Shown piece after piece: positions 11,658 to 61,703 of a stretch of 64,000 bases of DNA; positions within the stretch are counted from its first letter, which is position 1; every line of letters starts with the position of its first letter. Origin of the DNA: a virus; the IMG/VR virus record IMGVR_UViG_3300023179_009191, positions 1-64,000 of that record; one strand, written 5' to 3'. The notes beneath the pieces were generated by a model, which was given only the letters and a program-made list of their open reading frames with translations, did no database searches and was not told the origin of the DNA. Made by a program: the position numbers and the translations under genes.

Positions 11658-14600
11658 TTATTTAAGTTTTTTAATTTGTGCTTCTAATTGCTCTATGCGC
11701 TCCAACAAGTTCTTGATTACTGTGCCATGATATGGAATGGCTTGATCATAATTCATGACCAATGCAGCACTGGCAGGTGACACAAAGCCATCTGCATCAA
11801 TCTGCTCTTGAACATTGGCATTTCCTACTATGCTAATCAAATGATCAAAACCAGCTCTCATGACTTGTTGAGCAATAAACCCACTCTTTTTGCCAGGATT
11901 TTCTGCATCTTTCCAATTGAAAGTAACAGCAGAAACACCTTTAACAAAATTAGTAGCATCTTCTAGGGTAATTGGCACAATGTTGTCTTTTAATCTCTCA
12001 TCAGAAGATGCATTGAACTCTGGGCTCTGAATGCGTGAAGAGCATGTGAGTGAGTAAGGATTGGGAGTTGTGCCTGTGGTAGTGCTTGCTCCACTGGAAT
12101 TCAAGTAACCATAAGGTTGAGCAATAGCAGCATTTCTGCTTGAATTGATGCTCACATAACCATTCAGTGTGCTGCTACCAATTGCAACACCTGTTCCAAC
12201 TGCTCCTCCATTCACAGGAGATTGTGTCAAGAGATTGAGTTGACCATTGTTGGTGTTAATCCACATGCCATTGCCTGAACCTCTGGCATGAATATGGGTG
12301 TTTCCGTCATCATAGATTTGAGTGTTATTATTACCAAAACCAATGTAACCGCTCAGTGCATCATTGTTTGCTACTTTGGCTGTACCTGTGCCATACACAT
12401 TAATGGCACCATCATCTGTGATTTGCAGAAGACTTGCTGAATAAGTACTGTTAATTATTTCCAGACCACCATTAGAATTTAAACGGAAAAACTTGTTGGG
12501 TGTAACTGCAGAACCATATGTGTTGGTTACTGATGCAAAATCATGGTAACCTGTGCCACCTTTATTGGCATATCCAGCAATTTGTAATGTTGGGTTAGCA
12601 GTAGAATTGGCCAATGTTACTATACCTGAAGCACTTAAACTACCAAATAAAACACCAGAAAGAGGCGATGTGCTGGAGCCAATAACTAATTGATTGCTAG
12701 CTGTAGCTAAAGCATTAGTGCCCAAAACAATGACACCAGACAAGCTGCCAGTAGACACATTGGCTGTATTGCCTATGATAACGTTATTAGAACCAATAGT
12801 ATTAGCGCATCCTGCACAATTGCCTATGAAATTATTGTTAAAACCTGTACTATTATTAAAACCAGCTTTGTAACCTAAGAAGTTGTTTCTTTTGCCTGTG
12901 GAGTTGTTGAGGCCAGTAGCATATCCCAAGAAATTATTGCAACTGCCTGTGGTGTTTAAACGGCCAGCTGCATATCCAATGAAATTATTGCCAGCACCTG
13001 TGTAATTTGCATAGCCAGCTTGATATCCCAAGAAATTGTTGTATTTACCTGAGGTGTTAAATACACCCGTTTTTTGTCCAAAAAAATTGTTATCATTGCC
13101 TGTAGTATTTCTTATTCCAGCACAAGTTCCCAAAAAATTGTTGTAATTGCCTGTATAATTGTAGTTGCCAGCTAGGAATCCAAAGAAATTGTTGTGATTG
13201 CCTATGGTGTTGCAAAAACCAGCATTATATCCTAAGAAATTATTATTACTGCCTGTGGTATTACGATAACCTGTTTTATTTCCTAAGAAATTGTTATCAT
13301 AGCCTGAAGTATTGCTTCGACCGGCTTGTCTTCCTATAAAATTGTTTTTGCAGCCTGTAGTATTAAGTCTACCAGCTTGAAATCCAAGGAAATTGTTATA
13401 ACATCCTGTGGTGTTACTAAAGCCAGCAAGTATACCAAAGAAATTGTTGTTACTGCCTGTGGTGTTGCGAGCGCCAGCATTTTGTCCCAAGAAATTGTTG
13501 TTGTAGCCTGTGGTGTTGCTACAGCCAGCACATTTTCCAAATACAAAATTGTGTGTGCCTGTGGTTGTATTTTTGCCTGTGGAAGCATCACCAATGAACA
13601 CATTGAATGCAGCAGAAGGAGCAGTGACCAGGGTTCTTCCTGCTAAAAATATGTTGTTTGTGCTCAATGCAGGGGTGCTCAATGCTCCTGTCATAGTATC
13701 ACCAGACAATTTCACATACTGAGAACCTGTTGCATAATTGGCACTTACTGTAGACCAATTGCTCCATGCTGCACTGTTGGTATTGGTGGTAGTATAGTTG
13801 CTGTTCCACTGATCACTGTTGCCACTTATTGTGCATAAAGCAGGCAGTGTTGTTGAAGTAACAGCAAGACTACCAAATAATGTGCCAGTTAGTGGGGCAA
13901 CAGCAGCACCAATGACCAATGTATTGGAGACAGTAGCAGCTGCACTAAGACCTATGACTACAGAACCAGATAAATTATTAGAAGCAGTATTGGCTCTGTG
14001 ACCCATGATGATGTTGTTGGACCCAATGGTGTTGGTACAACCTGCATAATTACCAATAAATATGTTGGTTTGTCCAAAATTGGTACAATAGCCTGAACGG
14101 TTGCCTATGATTGTGTTGCTAAAGCCAGAGCAAATGCAACCTCCTGAATATGACCCTATGATAACATTTCTTGTAGAGCTAGTACCAGTTCTACCAGCAA
14201 AATGACCAATAAAAACATTATTTGAAGCATTACCAAAAGTGTTTATGCCTGCTTGTCTGCCAATTATTACATTAAAAAGTCCAGAATTAAGAGCACCTGC
14301 CATTTGTCCAATGTTTACATTCATGCTACCAGTAGCACCACAGCCAGCTATTTGTCCAATTGAAACATTATCATACCCTGTGGTATTGAGACAGCCTGCT
14401 TCATTGCCAATGAACACATTGCTAGAGCCAGTTGTGTTTTTACACCCAGTTCTAGAGCCTATAAAAACATTTCTGCTACCAGTGGTATTTACCCTGCCTG
14501 CATTAAACCCTACAAATGCATTGTCACTTCCTGTGGAATTATTGTTGCCAGCACTAACACCAAACATGAAGTTGTGTGTGCCTGTGGTTGTATTTTTGCC

Positions 14601-20785: not shown

Positions 20786-20886
20786 ACCTCCTTAGTTTAA
20801 TGATAAAACAAGTGATTTATACTCACTGCCCTGCCAAGGGTGCTCTAGATCTGAGCACGATGCTGGTTTGAATCCAGCAGGAGGTA
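20786..20886 (+). tRNA. tRNA-Ile(TAT)-like gene with a 34-nt two-hairpin variable region
   Basis: Acceptor ACCTCCT/AGGAGGT+A; D stem GTTT/AAAC; anticodon arm AGTGA-TTTATAC-TCACT; T arm GCTGG-TTTGAAT-CCAGC. Confidence 0.7.
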
Positions 20887-43480: not shown

Positions 43481-43848
43481 ATGGGCCTGTCAGGTCCCGG
43501 CCATGGGTCTGTTTTCTAGTATAGTAGGAATTCTGGTACTGTTCTACCTGCTTCTTAAACTTCTGTAACTTGTTCATCTTAGCATTTTGCTAAATGGTTG
43601 AAAATGACTGAGCAGACCTAACCATTTCTGTCTCAACACTCTCTGTAGTTTGTTCATGCCCAACAATCCAACCACTGTTCATAATCAACACCTTTACGCG
43701 TAAAGTAAAGGTCCAGAGCCCCCTCCTCCTCTCCTAATATAAGATGGTACTGCCTTCCTAAATTGTCCCTATATTATAAAGGAATTCTAGATTCTGTCAA
43801 TAACAAAATAAGGCTTGTTGCAACCCCAAATTCAGATATAATATAGGT

Positions 43849-44061
43849 ATGATGAAACTAGAAAGAAAGAAACAAATTAGTGAGCTTATTGAAGAGACAT
43901 TCAATAATGTTCAAAAACTAAATGAATTGTTAAAGAAATCAGATTATGAATGGGCCAATAAGAATTGGGAGTCTGAAAATGATGATGATTATGAATTGGC
44001 TGAATCCATTCTTAATGTGGGAGAGAATCTTAAAGATTGGGGCAAGCAATTTAGGGGTTGA
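43849..44061 (+). CDS. Early acidic small protein
   Basis: Promoter cassette; stop codon lies inside the next -35 box. Confidence 0.7.
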   Translation: MMKLERKKQISELIEETFNNVQKLNELLKKSDYEWANKNWESENDDDYELAESILNVGENLKDWGKQFRG

Positions 44062-44091
44062 CTAAATCCAAAATTCAGCCATAATATAGGT

Positions 44092-44295
44092 ATGATGAAA
44101 GAAGAAAACAAAAGAACGTTTGAGGTAGATATTGCAGTCACCCTCTTTATCACTCAAGAAGTAGAAGCAACAGATGAAGATGAAGCTCAAAGAATTGCAG
44201 AAGATTCCATCAAAACTGGAACTGTAATGAATGCTTGGGAGTGTAGAGATTGTGAGATTGAAAGTACAGGCTGTACTGAAGTGGAGGTAGAGTGA
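44092..44295 (+). CDS. Early acidic small protein
   Basis: Promoter cassette; VEATDEDEAQRIAE. Confidence 0.7.
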   Translation: MMKEENKRTFEVDIAVTLFITQEVEATDEDEAQRIAEDSIKTGTVMNAWECRDCEIESTGCTEVEVE

Positions 44296-44510
44296 ATACA
44301 TTCCAACCTTATACACAAACAAATGTTGTAGACTTCTATAAGGAGTTGGTTAAGAGGTGGGCTGATGACCAATTGGACCAACTGCATGAATACCCTATTA
44401 CTGATAGGAAGAATGCATTAGCAAGGCTTCTTGACTCCTCTCTAGATGTGTTCCGAGATGATATTACAGAAGAAATCAGAAAAAGAAATTTGTCTTTTTT
44501 GGTTGACTAA
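44292..44510 (+). CDS. Early small protein
   Basis: GTGA overlap with GGAGG RBS. Confidence 0.6.
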   Translation: MNTFQPYTQTNVVDFYKELVKRWADDQLDQLHEYPITDRKNALARLLDSSLDVFRDDITEEIRKRNLSFLVD

Positions 44511-44536
44511 AAACTAAATTCCACCATAATAGGTGT

Positions 44537-44758
44537 ATGATGAATAAAGAACAATACTTACAAATTGACTTGTATAATGGCAAAAGCAAATGGATCTCCA
44601 AAAAGGACTTTCTCCTTTTTACAGTAGGGGATGGTACTGAAGAGGCAGATTATAATTGGAAAGACAATTGGGAATATATTAGAAAGACTCCCACCCACAC
44701 AACCTATAAAGGGGAAGAGTGTATTTTAGTAGATTTCACCAACACAAAATTGGCTTGA
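44537..44758 (+). CDS. Early small protein
   Basis: Promoter cassette. Confidence 0.7.
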   Translation: MMNKEQYLQIDLYNGKSKWISKKDFLLFTVGDGTEEADYNWKDNWEYIRKTPTHTTYKGEECILVDFTNTKLA

Positions 44759-44788
44759 CCCAAACCCAAATTCAGCCATAATATAAAC

Positions 44789-44989
44789 ATGATGAAACCA
44801 TTAACCGAAGAACAACTCAGTTACCGCGCACTTGACCTGCACATGACAGCTGAGAACATCCGCACCAATCTATCCAATATTGAGGCGATGTTGAGTATAT
44901 CCAATCCTAATTGGAAGAACTTGTATACAGCATTACAAGAGATTGATAGCAAAACTGATCGGCTATCAGATCGGGTTCGCTGGAAATAA
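44789..44989 (+). CDS. Early small helical protein
   Basis: Promoter cassette; similar to 45027-45230. Confidence 0.7.
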   Translation: MMKPLTEEQLSYRALDLHMTAENIRTNLSNIEAMLSISNPNWKNLYTALQEIDSKTDRLSDRVRWK

Positions 44990-45026
44990 GAGTTGACCAA
45001 ATCCTAATTTCCCATATAATATGAGT

Positions 45027-45230
45027 ATGATAAATGATACAGAGAGGTGGGAGAGAATGTTGAAGGTGGGTTATTCAATTGAGAACATTATTAATGGGCT
45101 CAAATATATTGGAAATGAAATTAATATTGAGACTCCTTTATGGGAAACATTCTGCAAAAGAATTGATACAATCGACAATAATGTGGATAAGCTCATTGAA
45201 TTGATTGAGATCAGAAAGCAGAACAAATGA
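45027..45230 (+). CDS. Early small helical protein
   Basis: ATG 34 nt after TTGACC. Confidence 0.65.
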   Translation: MINDTERWERMLKVGYSIENIINGLKYIGNEINIETPLWETFCKRIDTIDNNVDKLIELIEIRKQNK

Positions 45231-45454
45231 AGTTCTCTTATAAGAAGCTGGTTGATGAGCATACAAAAGCTCTGAAGTTAAGATGGGGTAGTGACTGCCT
45301 CTCCGAAGGGAGCAAGACAGCCATCAATTATGGATGGTCACAGACAGACAATTCTATCTGCTCTAAAATATATCAAGAGAGTGGGCATCAAGTTTTAGAT
45401 ACTTGGTTTGATGAAGAGGATAAGATTTACAGGTCAGCCCAATCCAATTATTGA
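45227..45454 (+). CDS. Early small protein
   Basis: ATGA overlap. Confidence 0.6.
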   Translation: MKFSYKKLVDEHTKALKLRWGSDCLSEGSKTAINYGWSQTDNSICSKIYQESGHQVLDTWFDEEDKIYRSAQSNY

Positions 45455-45489
45455 GTTGACTAAAACAGAAGTTCTTTCATAATAATAGC

Positions 45490-45635
45490 AGTTCCTTCCG
45501 CAGTACGGGTTTGACTAGCCCAATTGATGTACTGAAGCCCCAACGCCCAGAGTCTGAGGCGAGTAGAGGTGGGTATATTGTCCTAACTACTGTCGACGTT
45601 ACTAGAGTAGGGGAGTCGGAAGGAGCTACTTTTTT
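45490..45635 (+). ncRNA. Candidate novel structured small RNA (~145 nt) under an early promoter
   Basis: TTGACT(45456)-16-CATAAT; predicted +1 A45490 begins an 11-bp closing stem AGTTCCTTCCG/CGGAAGGAGCT followed by a T6 tract; three internal arms; no start codon at +1. Confidence 0.75.
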
Positions 45636-45671
45636 AGTTGACCCAAACAGAAGTTCCATCATAATATAGGT

Positions 45672-45992
45672 ATGATGAATAACACAGAACTAGCCAAGGC
45701 CTTGACAGTGATGGTAACTGATCCCAAGATCAGAAGCTTCCTAGAAGATAACGATCCCATGGCTCTGAAGCAAGCCACAGAAGCTCTCAGAAACTATTTT
45801 AACCAATATCAGACCACCCATTACACACTTTCAGGTGAAGTGCCCTGGACGCCCCCAGTGGGACCTGCTGATTACTACCCTGATTGGGATTTCTATATGA
45901 AGCCTCACCATGAATACACTACAGACATGAAGACTGAGCCTTTGAAGTGGGGTCCGTTTGGAGAAGGTGGCTCTACACCTCTTGGGAAATAA
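45672..45992 (+). CDS. Early hypothetical protein
   Basis: Promoter cassette with ATGATG. Confidence 0.7.
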   Translation: MMNNTELAKALTVMVTDPKIRSFLEDNDPMALKQATEALRNYFNQYQTTHYTLSGEVPWTPPVGPADYYPDWDFYMKPHHEYTTDMKTEPLKWGPFGEGGSTPLGK

Positions 45993-46158
45993 CTGATGCT
46001 GTACATCATTAAGGTAGAGAAGATGTGTGAGGCTGTTATAACTGTAGAAGCAGAGAGTGAAGAACAAGCCAAAGAGAAAGCAGAATTTCACAAATATAAT
46101 ATGGTTCTTGGTTGGAAATAAGAGTTGACTTCAACCCAAATTCCTGCATAATAGTAGT

Positions 46159-46326
46159 ATGATGACAATGACGATCAAAGAAGCGGTGAAGAAGTACAAG
46201 AAGCAGGACACCTGCAGGTACTTCCTCAAATGCACCAATAAGGCCACCACCACCATCCCCAACCCCATTCTAGGAGAGGTGCCTGCTTGTAAGAGCTGTG
46301 CAGACTTCTATCGGAGACAATCATGA
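46159..46326 (+). CDS. Small Cys4 (zinc-binding-like) early protein
   Basis: MMTMTIKEAVKKYKKQDTCRYFLKCTNKA...VPACKSCADFY, below the track cutoff; promoter cassette. Confidence 0.65.
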   Translation: MMTMTIKEAVKKYKKQDTCRYFLKCTNKATTTIPNPILGEVPACKSCADFYRRQS

Positions 46327-46502
46327 CATACAGAGAACTAGCCAATCGTATCAACCAGATGAATGAGTACCAACAGGACTGTCATGTAACCTATTGGCAT
46401 GATGATGAGTATTATGGTAAGCTGATTATCGACTTCGCTGATGTGAGGACTGAAGATCGTTTAGATGGATGGCATCCTTACTTAACTCAATTACCTTCAT
46501 GA
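46323..46502 (+). CDS. Small protein MTYRELANRI...
   Basis: 59-aa ORF with ATGA overlaps on both sides. Confidence 0.6.
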   Translation: MTYRELANRINQMNEYQQDCHVTYWHDDEYYGKLIIDFADVRTEDRLDGWHPYLTQLPS

Positions 46503-46672
46503 CATACAGAGTAACTTGGTATTCCAATTGGGTGAAGCCTGAAGTTTATACTGAGCTCACCAAAGCAGAAGCAGAAGAACTAGTTAGAGAGGGTGTGGAG
46601 CGTCAGTACAGAGTAGAAGTGATAGAAGAGAACTCTGTGGAATATTGGGCCCAACCTGAGCGCTTAAAGTAG
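46499..46672 (+). CDS. Small protein MTYRVTWY...
   Basis: ATGA overlap. Confidence 0.6.
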   Translation: MTYRVTWYSNWVKPEVYTELTKAEAEELVREGVERQYRVEVIEENSVEYWAQPERLK

Positions 46673-46707
46673 TTGCCGTTAACCTAACTTTCGCATATAC
46701 TATAGGT

Positions 46708-47028
46708 ATGATGAATAAAGAAGTTACTTACGAGATATACGATCAAATGATTGGTGAATGGCGCAATGTTACCGAGCCCGCTATTGGCGGTATCAAGTGG
46801 GGTAAGCGCGAACAGATTGGGGATGAAGTCCAGTCTGCTTATTACGATCACACTTATTACAAGGTACCCTTCTATGGTCCTTGCGATCTGGGTCGTATGC
46901 AACGAGCTCTCTACAGGTTATATCCTGCTCGCTTTAACAAATTTGGTGGTTATACTACCGTTAGTAAGGTAGAAAAGCTTGATGATCAACACATTAAGGT
47001 AGAGATGTGCTACCATATTGGCGATTAG
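46708..47028 (+). CDS. Early hypothetical protein
   Basis: TTGCCG-17-TATACT-6-ATGATG. Confidence 0.7.
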   Translation: MMNKEVTYEIYDQMIGEWRNVTEPAIGGIKWGKREQIGDEVQSAYYDHTYYKVPFYGPCDLGRMQRALYRLYPARFNKFGGYTTVSKVEKLDDQHIKVEMCYHIGD

Positions 47029-47037
47029 TAATTGTAG

Positions 47038-47508
47038 TTACAATAGTTTACAGCTCTTAGTTAGATTTTCTCTTGCCCACAGTGGTTGTAAGTTCTTGTA
47101 ATTGAAGCACTGTTTCTGCTGTTCTACATCAGTTAAATCAAAGCTAGAACAAGGGAGAATGTGATCCACATGCCATCCACGTGCTCCATAATTATCCCAA
47201 GACATCCCTGGTTTAAACAAGGATTCAATATGTTCTCTCAGCTGTTCTATAGAACATCCAATCAACTCTTGCGTTCTTTTAGACTTAGGAGCTTTACCCT
47301 TGAGTGCATGCCATATGCGATTACCTAGCAGTTGCTTGAGTCTGGTACCAGGATTACTTTTATGAAGAGCTCTGCGTCTTTCATAAGCTTTTTGTTTATT
47401 CTTAAGAAAGTAAAGCCTCATACGCTCTTTAGCTTCAGGTGTATCTTTAACACTATTATAGTATTCTCTAGCTTTTTGTCTGTGATACTCAACCCAATCT
47501 CTCATCAT
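47038..47508 (-). CDS. HNH-type (homing) endonuclease
   Basis: FKPGMSWDNYG..GWHVDHILPCSSFDL...CFNYKNLQPLWARENL.K. Confidence 0.8.
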   Translation of the reverse strand: MMRDWVEYHRQKAREYYNSVKDTPEAKERMRLYFLKNKQKAYERRRALHKSNPGTRLKQLLGNRIWHALKGKAPKSKRTQELIGCSIEQLREHIESLFKPGMSWDNYGARGWHVDHILPCSSFDLTDVEQQKQCFNYKNLQPLWARENLTKSCKLL

Positions 47509-61520: not shown

Positions 61521-61703
61521 ATGGCAGCATTATCTGCTATAGAAAATACTGCATTGTATAGAAAGTTCTTGGAAGAGAGGGAACACATTTTAAGAAACAA
61601 ATGGTTCATGTCTGAGAAAGAAGGGCATGATGTTGGTTTTGAAAGAGCTTTATTAAATTGGGTGAGCAATTTTAGAAACAAATGGTTACAAGATAACAAA
61701 TAA
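61521..61703 (+). CDS. DUF4032-like small protein
   Basis: LYRKFLEEREHILRNKWFMSEKEGHDVGFERALLNW, recalled from Verrucomicrobia proteins. Confidence 0.65.
   Translation: MAALSAIENTALYRKFLEEREHILRNKWFMSEKEGHDVGFERALLNWVSNFRNKWLQDNK

Follow-up and report, generated by a model that had tools for sequence, protein, structure and literature searches.

What does a phage gene cassette deliver when its promoter is in place and its start codon is not? The question is raised by positions 45456-45636 of the DNA stretch analysed here (the window), which is the first 64 kilobases (kb) of a 97.7-kb IMG/VR virus record, IMGVR_UViG_3300023179_009191. Between ~32 and 50 kb the small plus-strand genes of the window form an array in which each gene has its own promoter of the type TTGAC-N17-CATAAT, a pattern with 20 matches in the window at up to one mismatch, vs 3.2 expected. 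The cassette at 45456-45636 carries the promoter without a start codon at the usual position. An original prediction, drawn from the sequence alone, had pointed out the absent ATG and proposed that the cargo is an RNA instead of a protein; on both counts the sequence and its homologues bear it out. The segment 45490-45635 is almost certainly a genuine structured RNA gene. As for what the RNA does, the best explanation, and on the whole a somewhat probable one, is a stable folded non-coding RNA of a new family in freshwater T4-like phages that acts as a self-pairing particle.

Fold, promoter and ends of the RNA

Homologues were collected by exact-pattern scans of IMG/VR and the JGI metagenomes, followed by covariance-model searches. 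The result is a family of 33 distinct sequences, 140-222 nucleotides (nt) long, all from uncultured freshwater T4-like phages. Their consensus fold is a four-way junction with the arms P1 to P4, and in the window all of these lie on the plus strand. P1 is the closing helix of 11 base pairs (bp), whose 5' strand AGUUCCUUCCG (45490-45500) pairs with the 3' strand CGGAAGGAGCU (45617-45627); after it come AC and a run of six U at 45630-45635, so that helix and U-run together make a terminator-like end. The P2 arm (45501-45534) is formed by CAGUAC at 45501-45506 with GUACUG at 45529-45534 and holds P2b (45507-45521, GGGUU/AGCCC), the loop of which is UGACU at 45512-45516. The P3 arm (45537-45574) pairs GCCCC at 45537-45541 with G-GGGU at 45569-45574 and encloses the hairpin P3a (CGCCCAG-AGU-CUG-A-GGCG, 45544-45561), with AGUC at 45551-45554. 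A conserved A/U-rich linker, AUAUUG (45575-45580), leads from P3 to P4. The P4 arm itself (45581-45614) consists of an outer part, UCCU at 45581-45584 with GGGA at 45611-45614, and an inner part, CUACU/AGUAG, and its loop contains the palindrome GUCGAC (45592-45597) and a CUAG (45602-45605). In most members P4 is an 8-bp hairpin with a 9-nt loop. P3a has the family consensus YGCCCAG-AGU-CUG-A-GGCR and is the same in all members apart from its closing pair, which is C-G, U-A or C.A.

How much of this could be read from one sequence? The 11-bp stem had been recognised, and so had three arms (P2 with P2b, P3a and inner P4) that are real and are kept in the homologues; P3 and the outer part of P4 had escaped notice. 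The folding energy of the window RNA is of little help here. Its minimum free energy is -51.1 kcal/mol with z = -1.9, and 10 of 200 shuffled sequences fold as well; threaded on the consensus, the RNA reaches -47.6 kcal/mol vs a minimum of -50.5. Single-sequence folding is thus weak by itself, and the case for the structure rests on covariation among the homologues.

That covariation is found on two alignments, and the fold that had been put forward for such a check is supported on each. In a MAFFT alignment of 21 sequences, 91% of the cells are paired and 17 pairs have changed on both sides, vs 10.7 +/- 1.6 in shuffled controls (0 of 500 reach 17) and 2-6 in controls with the structure slid along the alignment. 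In a model-fitted alignment of the 33 sequences the paired cells amount to 93.1%, and 23 of the 40 pairs have changed on both sides, the controls giving 18.7 +/- 1.5 for shuffles (0 of 500 reach 23) and 3-7 for slid structures. Every helix shows compensatory changes except the invariant inner P3a hairpin. P1, with both-side changes in 5 of its 11 pairs, exists in four forms: AGUUCCUUCCG/CGGAAGGAGCU, AGUUC(U)UUCCGC/GCGGAAGAACU, ACAAUCCUACCCG/CGGGAUUAGGAUUGU at locus L407 and AGUUCUUCGA/UCGAAGAACU at L419. Both sides have changed in three of the four pairs of P2, in three of the five of P2b and in three of the five of P3, where GCCCC/G-GGGU becomes CCUGC/GCAGG in the divergent clade described below. 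Within the family, all eight pairs of P4 have changed on both sides. In addition, six helices contain G-U pairs and compensatory changes that are specific to one strand.

Could the segment nevertheless encode a small protein? Protein coding was considered and rejected. No reading frame is conserved across the clades: the clades differ by insertions or deletions of 10 nt and of ~85 nt, as well as by an extra hairpin in L200; the 10-nt change breaks the frames, and the longest stop-free frame moves from one strand and frame to another between clades.

The cargo of the cassette is accordingly a structured non-coding RNA, and sequence and homologues agree in giving it an early-type promoter of its own and an end made of a stem plus a U-run. 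The promoter is of the sigma70 type (45456-45483, plus strand), with a -35 box TTGACT at 45456-45461, a 16-nt spacer and a -10 box CATAAT at 45478-45483. It is one of the 20 matches to the promoter pattern in the window, and a second promoter scan calls it as well. Transcription is predicted to begin near A45490, 7 nt beyond the -10 box, so that the gene runs from 45490 to 45635 if it ends at the U-run, or to C45626 if the transcript is trimmed. Covariance model R1 matches 45488-45635 with 157 bits and model R2 matches 45489-45634 with 89 bits. The GC content, ~0.51 at the RNA vs roughly 0.35-0.45 in the flanks, agrees with the GC-rich island that had been described at this place.

Just 2 nt after the U-run, outside the RNA, the promoter of the next cassette begins (45638-45665, plus strand). 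It is nearly identical to that of the RNA, as had been noted from the sequence, and because it is a separate promoter, the RNA unit stands alone. The homologues give the same picture. In every one of them a sigma70-like promoter lies at a constant distance from the RNA, with its -10 box ending a few bases before P1; this promoter is either of the cassette type, TTGACT...CATAAT, or of a type found in tRNA islands, TTGACA/TTGCAC-N17-TAAGAT. Four different cassette genes follow near-identical copies of the window-type RNA, and since the downstream cassette varies while the RNA does not, the RNA unit is an independent module. A U-rich or A/U-rich tail follows P1 in most homologues and is absent in L407, L416, L421 and L423.

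Is the RNA made? Expression can be judged from assembled contigs, and these cover the RNA in two metatranscriptome runs that belong to a single lake study. Over 1.6 kb of sequence, run X20 has sizeable contigs at 45506-45626 and nowhere else. One contig follows the window as far as C45626, a base before P1 is complete, and is extended there by 25 non-templated A; the assembled sequence is unbroken across 45555-45626. These contigs speak in favour of the discrete transcript that had been foreseen, and the A-tailed one fits an RNA trimmed to its closing helix and A-tailed in the cell or during library preparation, which is a hint and not a proof.

Homologues and their genomic setting

Which phages carry this RNA? 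In the data collected, the family belongs to one lineage of freshwater T4-like phages. The proteins encoded in the window include ribonucleotide reductase and tail-fibre/virion proteins of T4-like myovirus type, and the NrdA is ~50% identical to that of Pelagibacter phage HTVC008M and of cyanomyoviruses. The NrdA proteins of four tested records that bear the RNA are closer, at 77-78% identity to the window NrdA. Nearly all public runs that contain the window stretch are freshwater or lake metagenomes. The record from which the window is taken has only one copy of the RNA, with no second copy in its 97.7 kb.

Within the family several groups can be told apart: near-identical copies of the window type, the L255 type with a 10-nt deletion, and a large group of 139-142 nt. 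The RNA of L200 carries an extra hairpin, and that of L407 has a wholly different closing helix. Last comes a divergent clade with RNAs of 222 nt, in which a domain of 85 nt is inserted between P1 and P2. It is exemplified by L419:6875-7096 (minus strand) and includes L402, L411 and L393; the additional ~85 nt are made up of several hairpins. A minor observation concerns the same clade. At RNA position 10 of L419 (CUCGAG) and position 12 of L402, a single A-to-C change converts CUCGAGCGAG to CUCGCGCGAG, a palindrome of 10 nt, where the model match starts.

Neither Rfam 15 nor the set of GenBank phage records searched contains the family, in line with the failure to recognise it at first sight. 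Over the whole window only three tRNA hits reach the Rfam 15 gathering score; for 45300-45800, with expectation values (E) up to 10, the best hit has 19 bits vs a gathering score of 57; and five homologous loci, searched with E up to 1, return only tRNAs and chance hits. GenBank phages gave no match to the window copy or to a tRNA-island copy used as queries. In prokaryote genomes there are 38 matches to the core pattern, none of which fits the covariance model. The pattern scans with GTTCCTTCCGCAGTAC (six of eight loci being high-GC coding regions), GGTGGGTATATTGTCC and ARAGGTGGGTATATT gave chance matches only, and the weak covariance-model hits L222, L115 and L387 were judged false.

The surroundings of the RNA are of two kinds. 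Most of the non-window copies lie inside the tRNA-gene region of their phages, on the strand of the tRNAs, as seen by running ARAGORN on the homologous loci, and 20 of 27 non-window loci have a tRNA on the same strand within 1 kb. For the window copy the nearest tRNA, a tRNA-Met, is 5 kb away. The window copy has relocated from the tRNA island into the early promoter-cassette array.

In the islands the typical order upstream is tRNA-Ile(UAU), Met, Lys, Leu and Arg, followed by two small open reading frames (ORFs) and then the RNA. Downstream follow a gene on the opposite strand for a DUF4032-like protein of 60 amino acids (aa), a tRNA-Glu, an ArdC-like anti-restriction gene and a gene of the GP88 family. 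The ArdC-like gene encodes the domains PF08401 and PF18818 (ArdC N-terminal plus zincin metallopeptidase) and is near the RNA in 15 of the 33 loci compared. At L395 the ArdC-like and GP88-family genes occupy 11837-12673 and 12789-13421, after the tRNA island, and the same genes occur in 13-15 of the compared loci; neither protein has a homologue in the window. The DUF4032-like gene does have one, at 61539-61685 (plus strand), 63% identical across 49 aa and placed just after nrdB, a long way from the RNA.

At four loci a tRNA gene abuts the 3' end of the RNA, 0-1 nt after a short U-run: tRNA-Tyr at L200:7502-7586, tRNA-Pro at L406:936-1011, and tRNA-Lys at both L414:4991-5062 and L418:7028-7099. 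This one site has received different tRNAs from phage to phage. None of the four has a promoter of its own, so that each must be made by read-through from the RNA, and a cut by RNase P at the 5' end of the tRNA would then free the 3' end of the RNA. The reverse arrangement is found at L416, L421 and L423, where the RNA starts 38-42 nt downstream of a tRNA.

Loops, proposed self-pairing and rival explanations

Another intriguing question is what the loops of this RNA do. Two of them contain complementary tetranucleotides, the GACU of the P2 loop and the AGUC of P3a; neither varies in any of the 33 sequences. As the P2 and P3 arms have similar lengths, a contact between the two loops within one molecule is plausible.

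The loop of P4 is of a different kind: every member has a 6-nt palindrome in it, and the palindrome is not always the same. UCUAGA is found in 23 sequences, GUCGAC in 7, UCAUGA in 2 and GUGCAC in 1, and in most clades the loop reads NN-UCUAGA-N. In the window type a 10-nt insertion has degraded the old hexamer to ACUAGA and has brought in the palindrome GUCGAC. Two switches can be recognised, UCUAGA to UCAUGA in L402 and L393, and GUCGAC to GUGCAC in L230, a variant of the window type. Both invert the central dinucleotide (UA to AU, CG to GC), and the hexamer stays self-complementary. Since neighbouring bases in a single loop are unable to pair, changes which keep the palindrome point to pairing between two molecules. 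The centre of the palindrome lies half a base off the axis of the stem; hence, it is not merely part of a longer inverted repeat of the DNA. As for composition, CTAG occurs 108 times in the whole window vs 218 expected (two-fold under-represented), TCTAGA 8 times vs 21, and GTCGAC 3 times vs 7.6. Because CTAG and TCTAGA are thus 2- to 2.7-fold under-represented, their retention in the loop is not an effect of composition.

How might such an RNA work? Host RNA polymerase can start at its private sigma70-type promoter, and the transcript closes through the 11-bp P1, the 3' strand of which runs into the U-tract, with P2, P3 and P4 radiating from the four-way junction. The RNA may then act as a folded particle rather than by antisense pairing, a mode for which the window offers nothing, because complementary stretches of 10 nt or longer are no commoner in it than expected by chance. 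The GACU of the P2 loop would pair with the AGUC of P3a, within one molecule or between molecules, and the palindrome of P4 would pair with the same loop of a second molecule, giving at least a symmetric dimer, as in the phage RNAs GOLLD and ROOL. That the RNA associates with itself through the P4 loop is a tentative proposal, read from the palindromes. A bolder version holds that the ~140-nt RNA of the tRNA islands builds an RNA-only assembly by two loop interfaces, P4 with P4 and the GACU of P2 with the AGUC of a neighbour's P3a; this is rather speculative and, as things stand, doubtful. If true, the molecules would pair as dimers or close into a particle of higher order, a small-scale analogue of the GOLLD, ROOL and manA cages, and phage tRNA islands would turn out to carry self-assembling RNAs as a recurrent accessory.

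Several observations weigh against a self-pairing particle. The palindrome has switched only twice, one switch being seen in two sequences and the other in one, which is too few for significance, and once both central bases have changed, the chance of keeping a palindrome is ~1 in 3 per switch. Palindromes of 6 nt are also common by chance in an RNA of 140 nt (~2.2 per shuffled sequence). The signal of the P4 loop is therefore suggestive and not significant. The calculated 6-bp loop duplexes are weak, from -5.0 to -7.9 kcal/mol, and in the window the stem leads straight into GUCGAC, an arrangement that suits a kissing loop less well. As for GACU and AGUC, their very invariance puts the pairing beyond the reach of covariation. 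Of 29 large related records only 2 have the gene; most relatives lack it, a 100%-complete genome of 217 kb included, which means that it is dispensable. Finally, the evidence from RNA libraries is restricted to assembled contigs of one study, and their coverage could include carry-over of DNA.

Two further ideas were tried and dropped. K-turn or C/D-box motifs, and a loop-E motif in the internal loop of P3, are not conserved across clades. The other idea concerned a tRNA-Ile(UAU) of 91-101 nt with a long variable arm, which is conserved in all these phages and is present in the window (20786-20886), at L395:9065-9158 and at 15 other loci. Its extra hairpin, GCUC-UAGAUUU-GGGC (in the window GCUC-UAGAUCU-GAGC), carries UCUAGA like the P4 loop of the RNA. 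A kissing contact between the two was not retained as the principal explanation, since the arm of the tRNA stays UCUAGA in L402 and L393, where the loop of the RNA is UCAUGA.

Perhaps the RNA acts as a monomer. It could be a decoy, as the original prediction had suggested with a host defence protein, RNA polymerase or an RNA-binding protein as target, or a sponge; either would occupy a protein of the host or the phage, for example one involved in tRNA processing, tRNA cleavage or defence, with the invariant loops as protein contacts. This is unlikely, albeit the strongest of the alternatives, and it is compatible with dimerisation. It would account for the many invariant unpaired nucleotides (GACU, the whole P3a hairpin and the A/U linker), and both the early promoter and the surroundings, with tRNA genes and, at 15 of 33 loci, an ArdC-like anti-restriction gene nearby, are what one would expect of it. 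The 11-12 bp of P1 even equal the length of the acceptor/T minihelix of a tRNA. However, the RNA has no tRNA features, no partner gene co-occurs with it across both settings, and the window copy is without the neighbours of its relatives. A sequence-specific protein site is unlikely to switch from one palindrome to another and yet stay palindromic, a change that a dimeric protein could tolerate.

Does the element act in cis instead, as a folding-dependent terminator or a riboswitch-like leader whose fold joins the strands of P1 ahead of the U-run and so sets the level of read-through? P1 is indeed both the closing helix and the sole stem before the U-run, and the promoterless tRNAs at 0-1 nt in L200, L406, L414 and L418 rely on read-through. 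What makes the idea improbable is the context of the other copies: in the window type a separate promoter for the following gene begins 2 nt past the U-run, most tRNA-island copies are followed by a gene on the opposite strand, L407, L416, L421 and L423 keep the fold without a U-run, and the RNA remains unchanged while its downstream neighbour varies.

A self-cleaving or otherwise catalytic RNA of a new class is less probable again. Several small ribozyme classes are common in phages, and a compact multi-helix junction with many invariant nucleotides in junction and loops would suit such a function, but no Rfam 15 ribozyme matches, even at E up to 10, no conserved context of a cleavage site can be recognised, and the metatranscriptome contig runs on unbroken over 45555-45626. 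That there is no RNA gene at all is scarcely credible: an element that works as DNA, be it a palindrome bound by a protein or a promoter-terminator cassette, would suit an array that resembles the promoter-early stem-loop (PeSL) cassettes (PMC2839356) and loop palindromes that are also DNA palindromes, and a small protein could be sought in the 48-codon stop-free stretch on the plus strand or the 61-aa ORF on the minus strand of the window copy, but the former conflicts with the G-U pairs and one-strand-specific changes in six helices and with the half-base offset of the loop palindrome, the latter with frames that the 10-nt indel breaks and that switch strand between clades, and both with the A-tailed RNA contig.

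Known phage RNAs and promoter cassettes

With a self-pairing folded RNA as the preferred explanation, is there anything comparable among phages? The closest parallel in place and size is provided by the stable RNAs of phage T4, RNA C and RNA D (species 1 and 2), of 139 and 119 nt, which are encoded in the T4 tRNA-gene region on the tRNA strand and have roles that are still unexplained (PMC3014915). The new family resembles them in being small, non-coding and, in the relatives though not in the window copy, located on the strand of a tRNA region. It differs in that every copy has its own promoter and in the lack of a T arm, which T4 rnaC truly has, GGGUUCGAAUCCC (CCGGGUUCGAAUCCCGG). Homology to rnaC and rnaD was rejected: they show no similarity in sequence or structure to model R1, and a cmsearch of T4 68000-76000 with R1 and all filters off gave no match on these genes on their strand, the top score elsewhere being 10 bits. 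Nor is the RNA a tRNA in disguise. The loop GUUCRAAUC is found in none of the members, and neither ARAGORN nor the Rfam tRNA model makes a call on the RNA. P4 was considered as a tRNA-like T-loop and discarded, because the U at position 1 and the A at position 5 exist only in some clades and the AAUCUAGAG of the divergent clade does not fit.

A second group of relevance consists of RNAs that assemble with copies of themselves. The 9-nt loop of P4, with its two bases, 6-nt palindrome and one base on a stem, has the layout of the hairpin at the dimerisation initiation site of HIV-1, where variants of the palindrome likewise differ in the central bases. This likeness is one of layout: the virus is unrelated and so is the role, which is dimerisation of the genome. 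For OLE and GOLLD, covariation from one palindrome to another has been taken as evidence for symmetric intermolecular kissing loops by Kretsch et al. 2025 (PMC12286853), and the pairs UCUAGA/UCAUGA and GUCGAC/GUGCAC are a signature of the same kind as in GOLLD and the OLE dimer, with the qualification that oligomerisation of the new RNA would be deduced from two switches. Phages also encode ROOL and GOLLD, frequently in the vicinity of tRNA islands (PMC12286853), a setting that the new family shares. A difference is size: members of the new family have 140-222 nt, whereas many GOLLD RNAs exceed 800 nt (PMC12286853). The RNA gives no match to the Rfam models of GOLLD, ROOL or manA. ROOL, for its part, is several hundred nt long. 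Nearer in size is manA, whose molecules were recently shown to join into cages by kissing contacts between loops that differ from each other (bioRxiv 10.64898/2026.07.01.735769). It is likewise a short RNA (<200 nt) of T4-like phages of aquatic bacteria, and GACU and AGUC could act in the same way as its loops; in contrast, manA is described as an element of the 5' untranslated region, and the new RNA stands alone, with a promoter and an end to itself.

Structured RNAs that defy explanation turn up again and again in phage tRNA islands. RNA C and RNA D of T4 have been in this position for decades, and the cages of GOLLD and ROOL were shown only recently. The new RNA is a small counterpart of these tRNA-island RNAs, with a clear four-arm fold, its own promoter, two genomic settings and a loop signature that predicts self-pairing; pairing through P4 is the most specific prediction that follows. 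At 140 nt it is easier to transcribe, to mutate and to study by native gels, size-exclusion chromatography and cryo-electron microscopy than the large RNAs, and it could therefore help to explain the RNAs of tRNA islands in general.

The array around the window copy has a parallel of its own. In T4-type phages, modular shuffling between strains has been described for promoter cassettes (PMC2839356), and the array is like the PeSL cassettes in that strong sigma70-like promoters separate small accessory genes that behave as shuffled modules (PMC2839356). The promoter array is there, and P1 with its six U ends 2 nt before the next promoter; a simple scan finds no plus-strand terminator hairpins in 43500-47500. 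The difference lies in the stem before the next promoter, which is not a simple terminator hairpin and instead is the closing helix of a structured RNA of 140 nt. An RNA gene, too, can thus be shuffled as cargo of the early promoter cassettes by which T4-type phages exchange small genes. As for the protein-coding cassettes next to it (window 44058-46160), their -10 box lies 5-6 nt upstream of GTATGATGA, which suggests leaderless or near-leaderless messenger RNAs.

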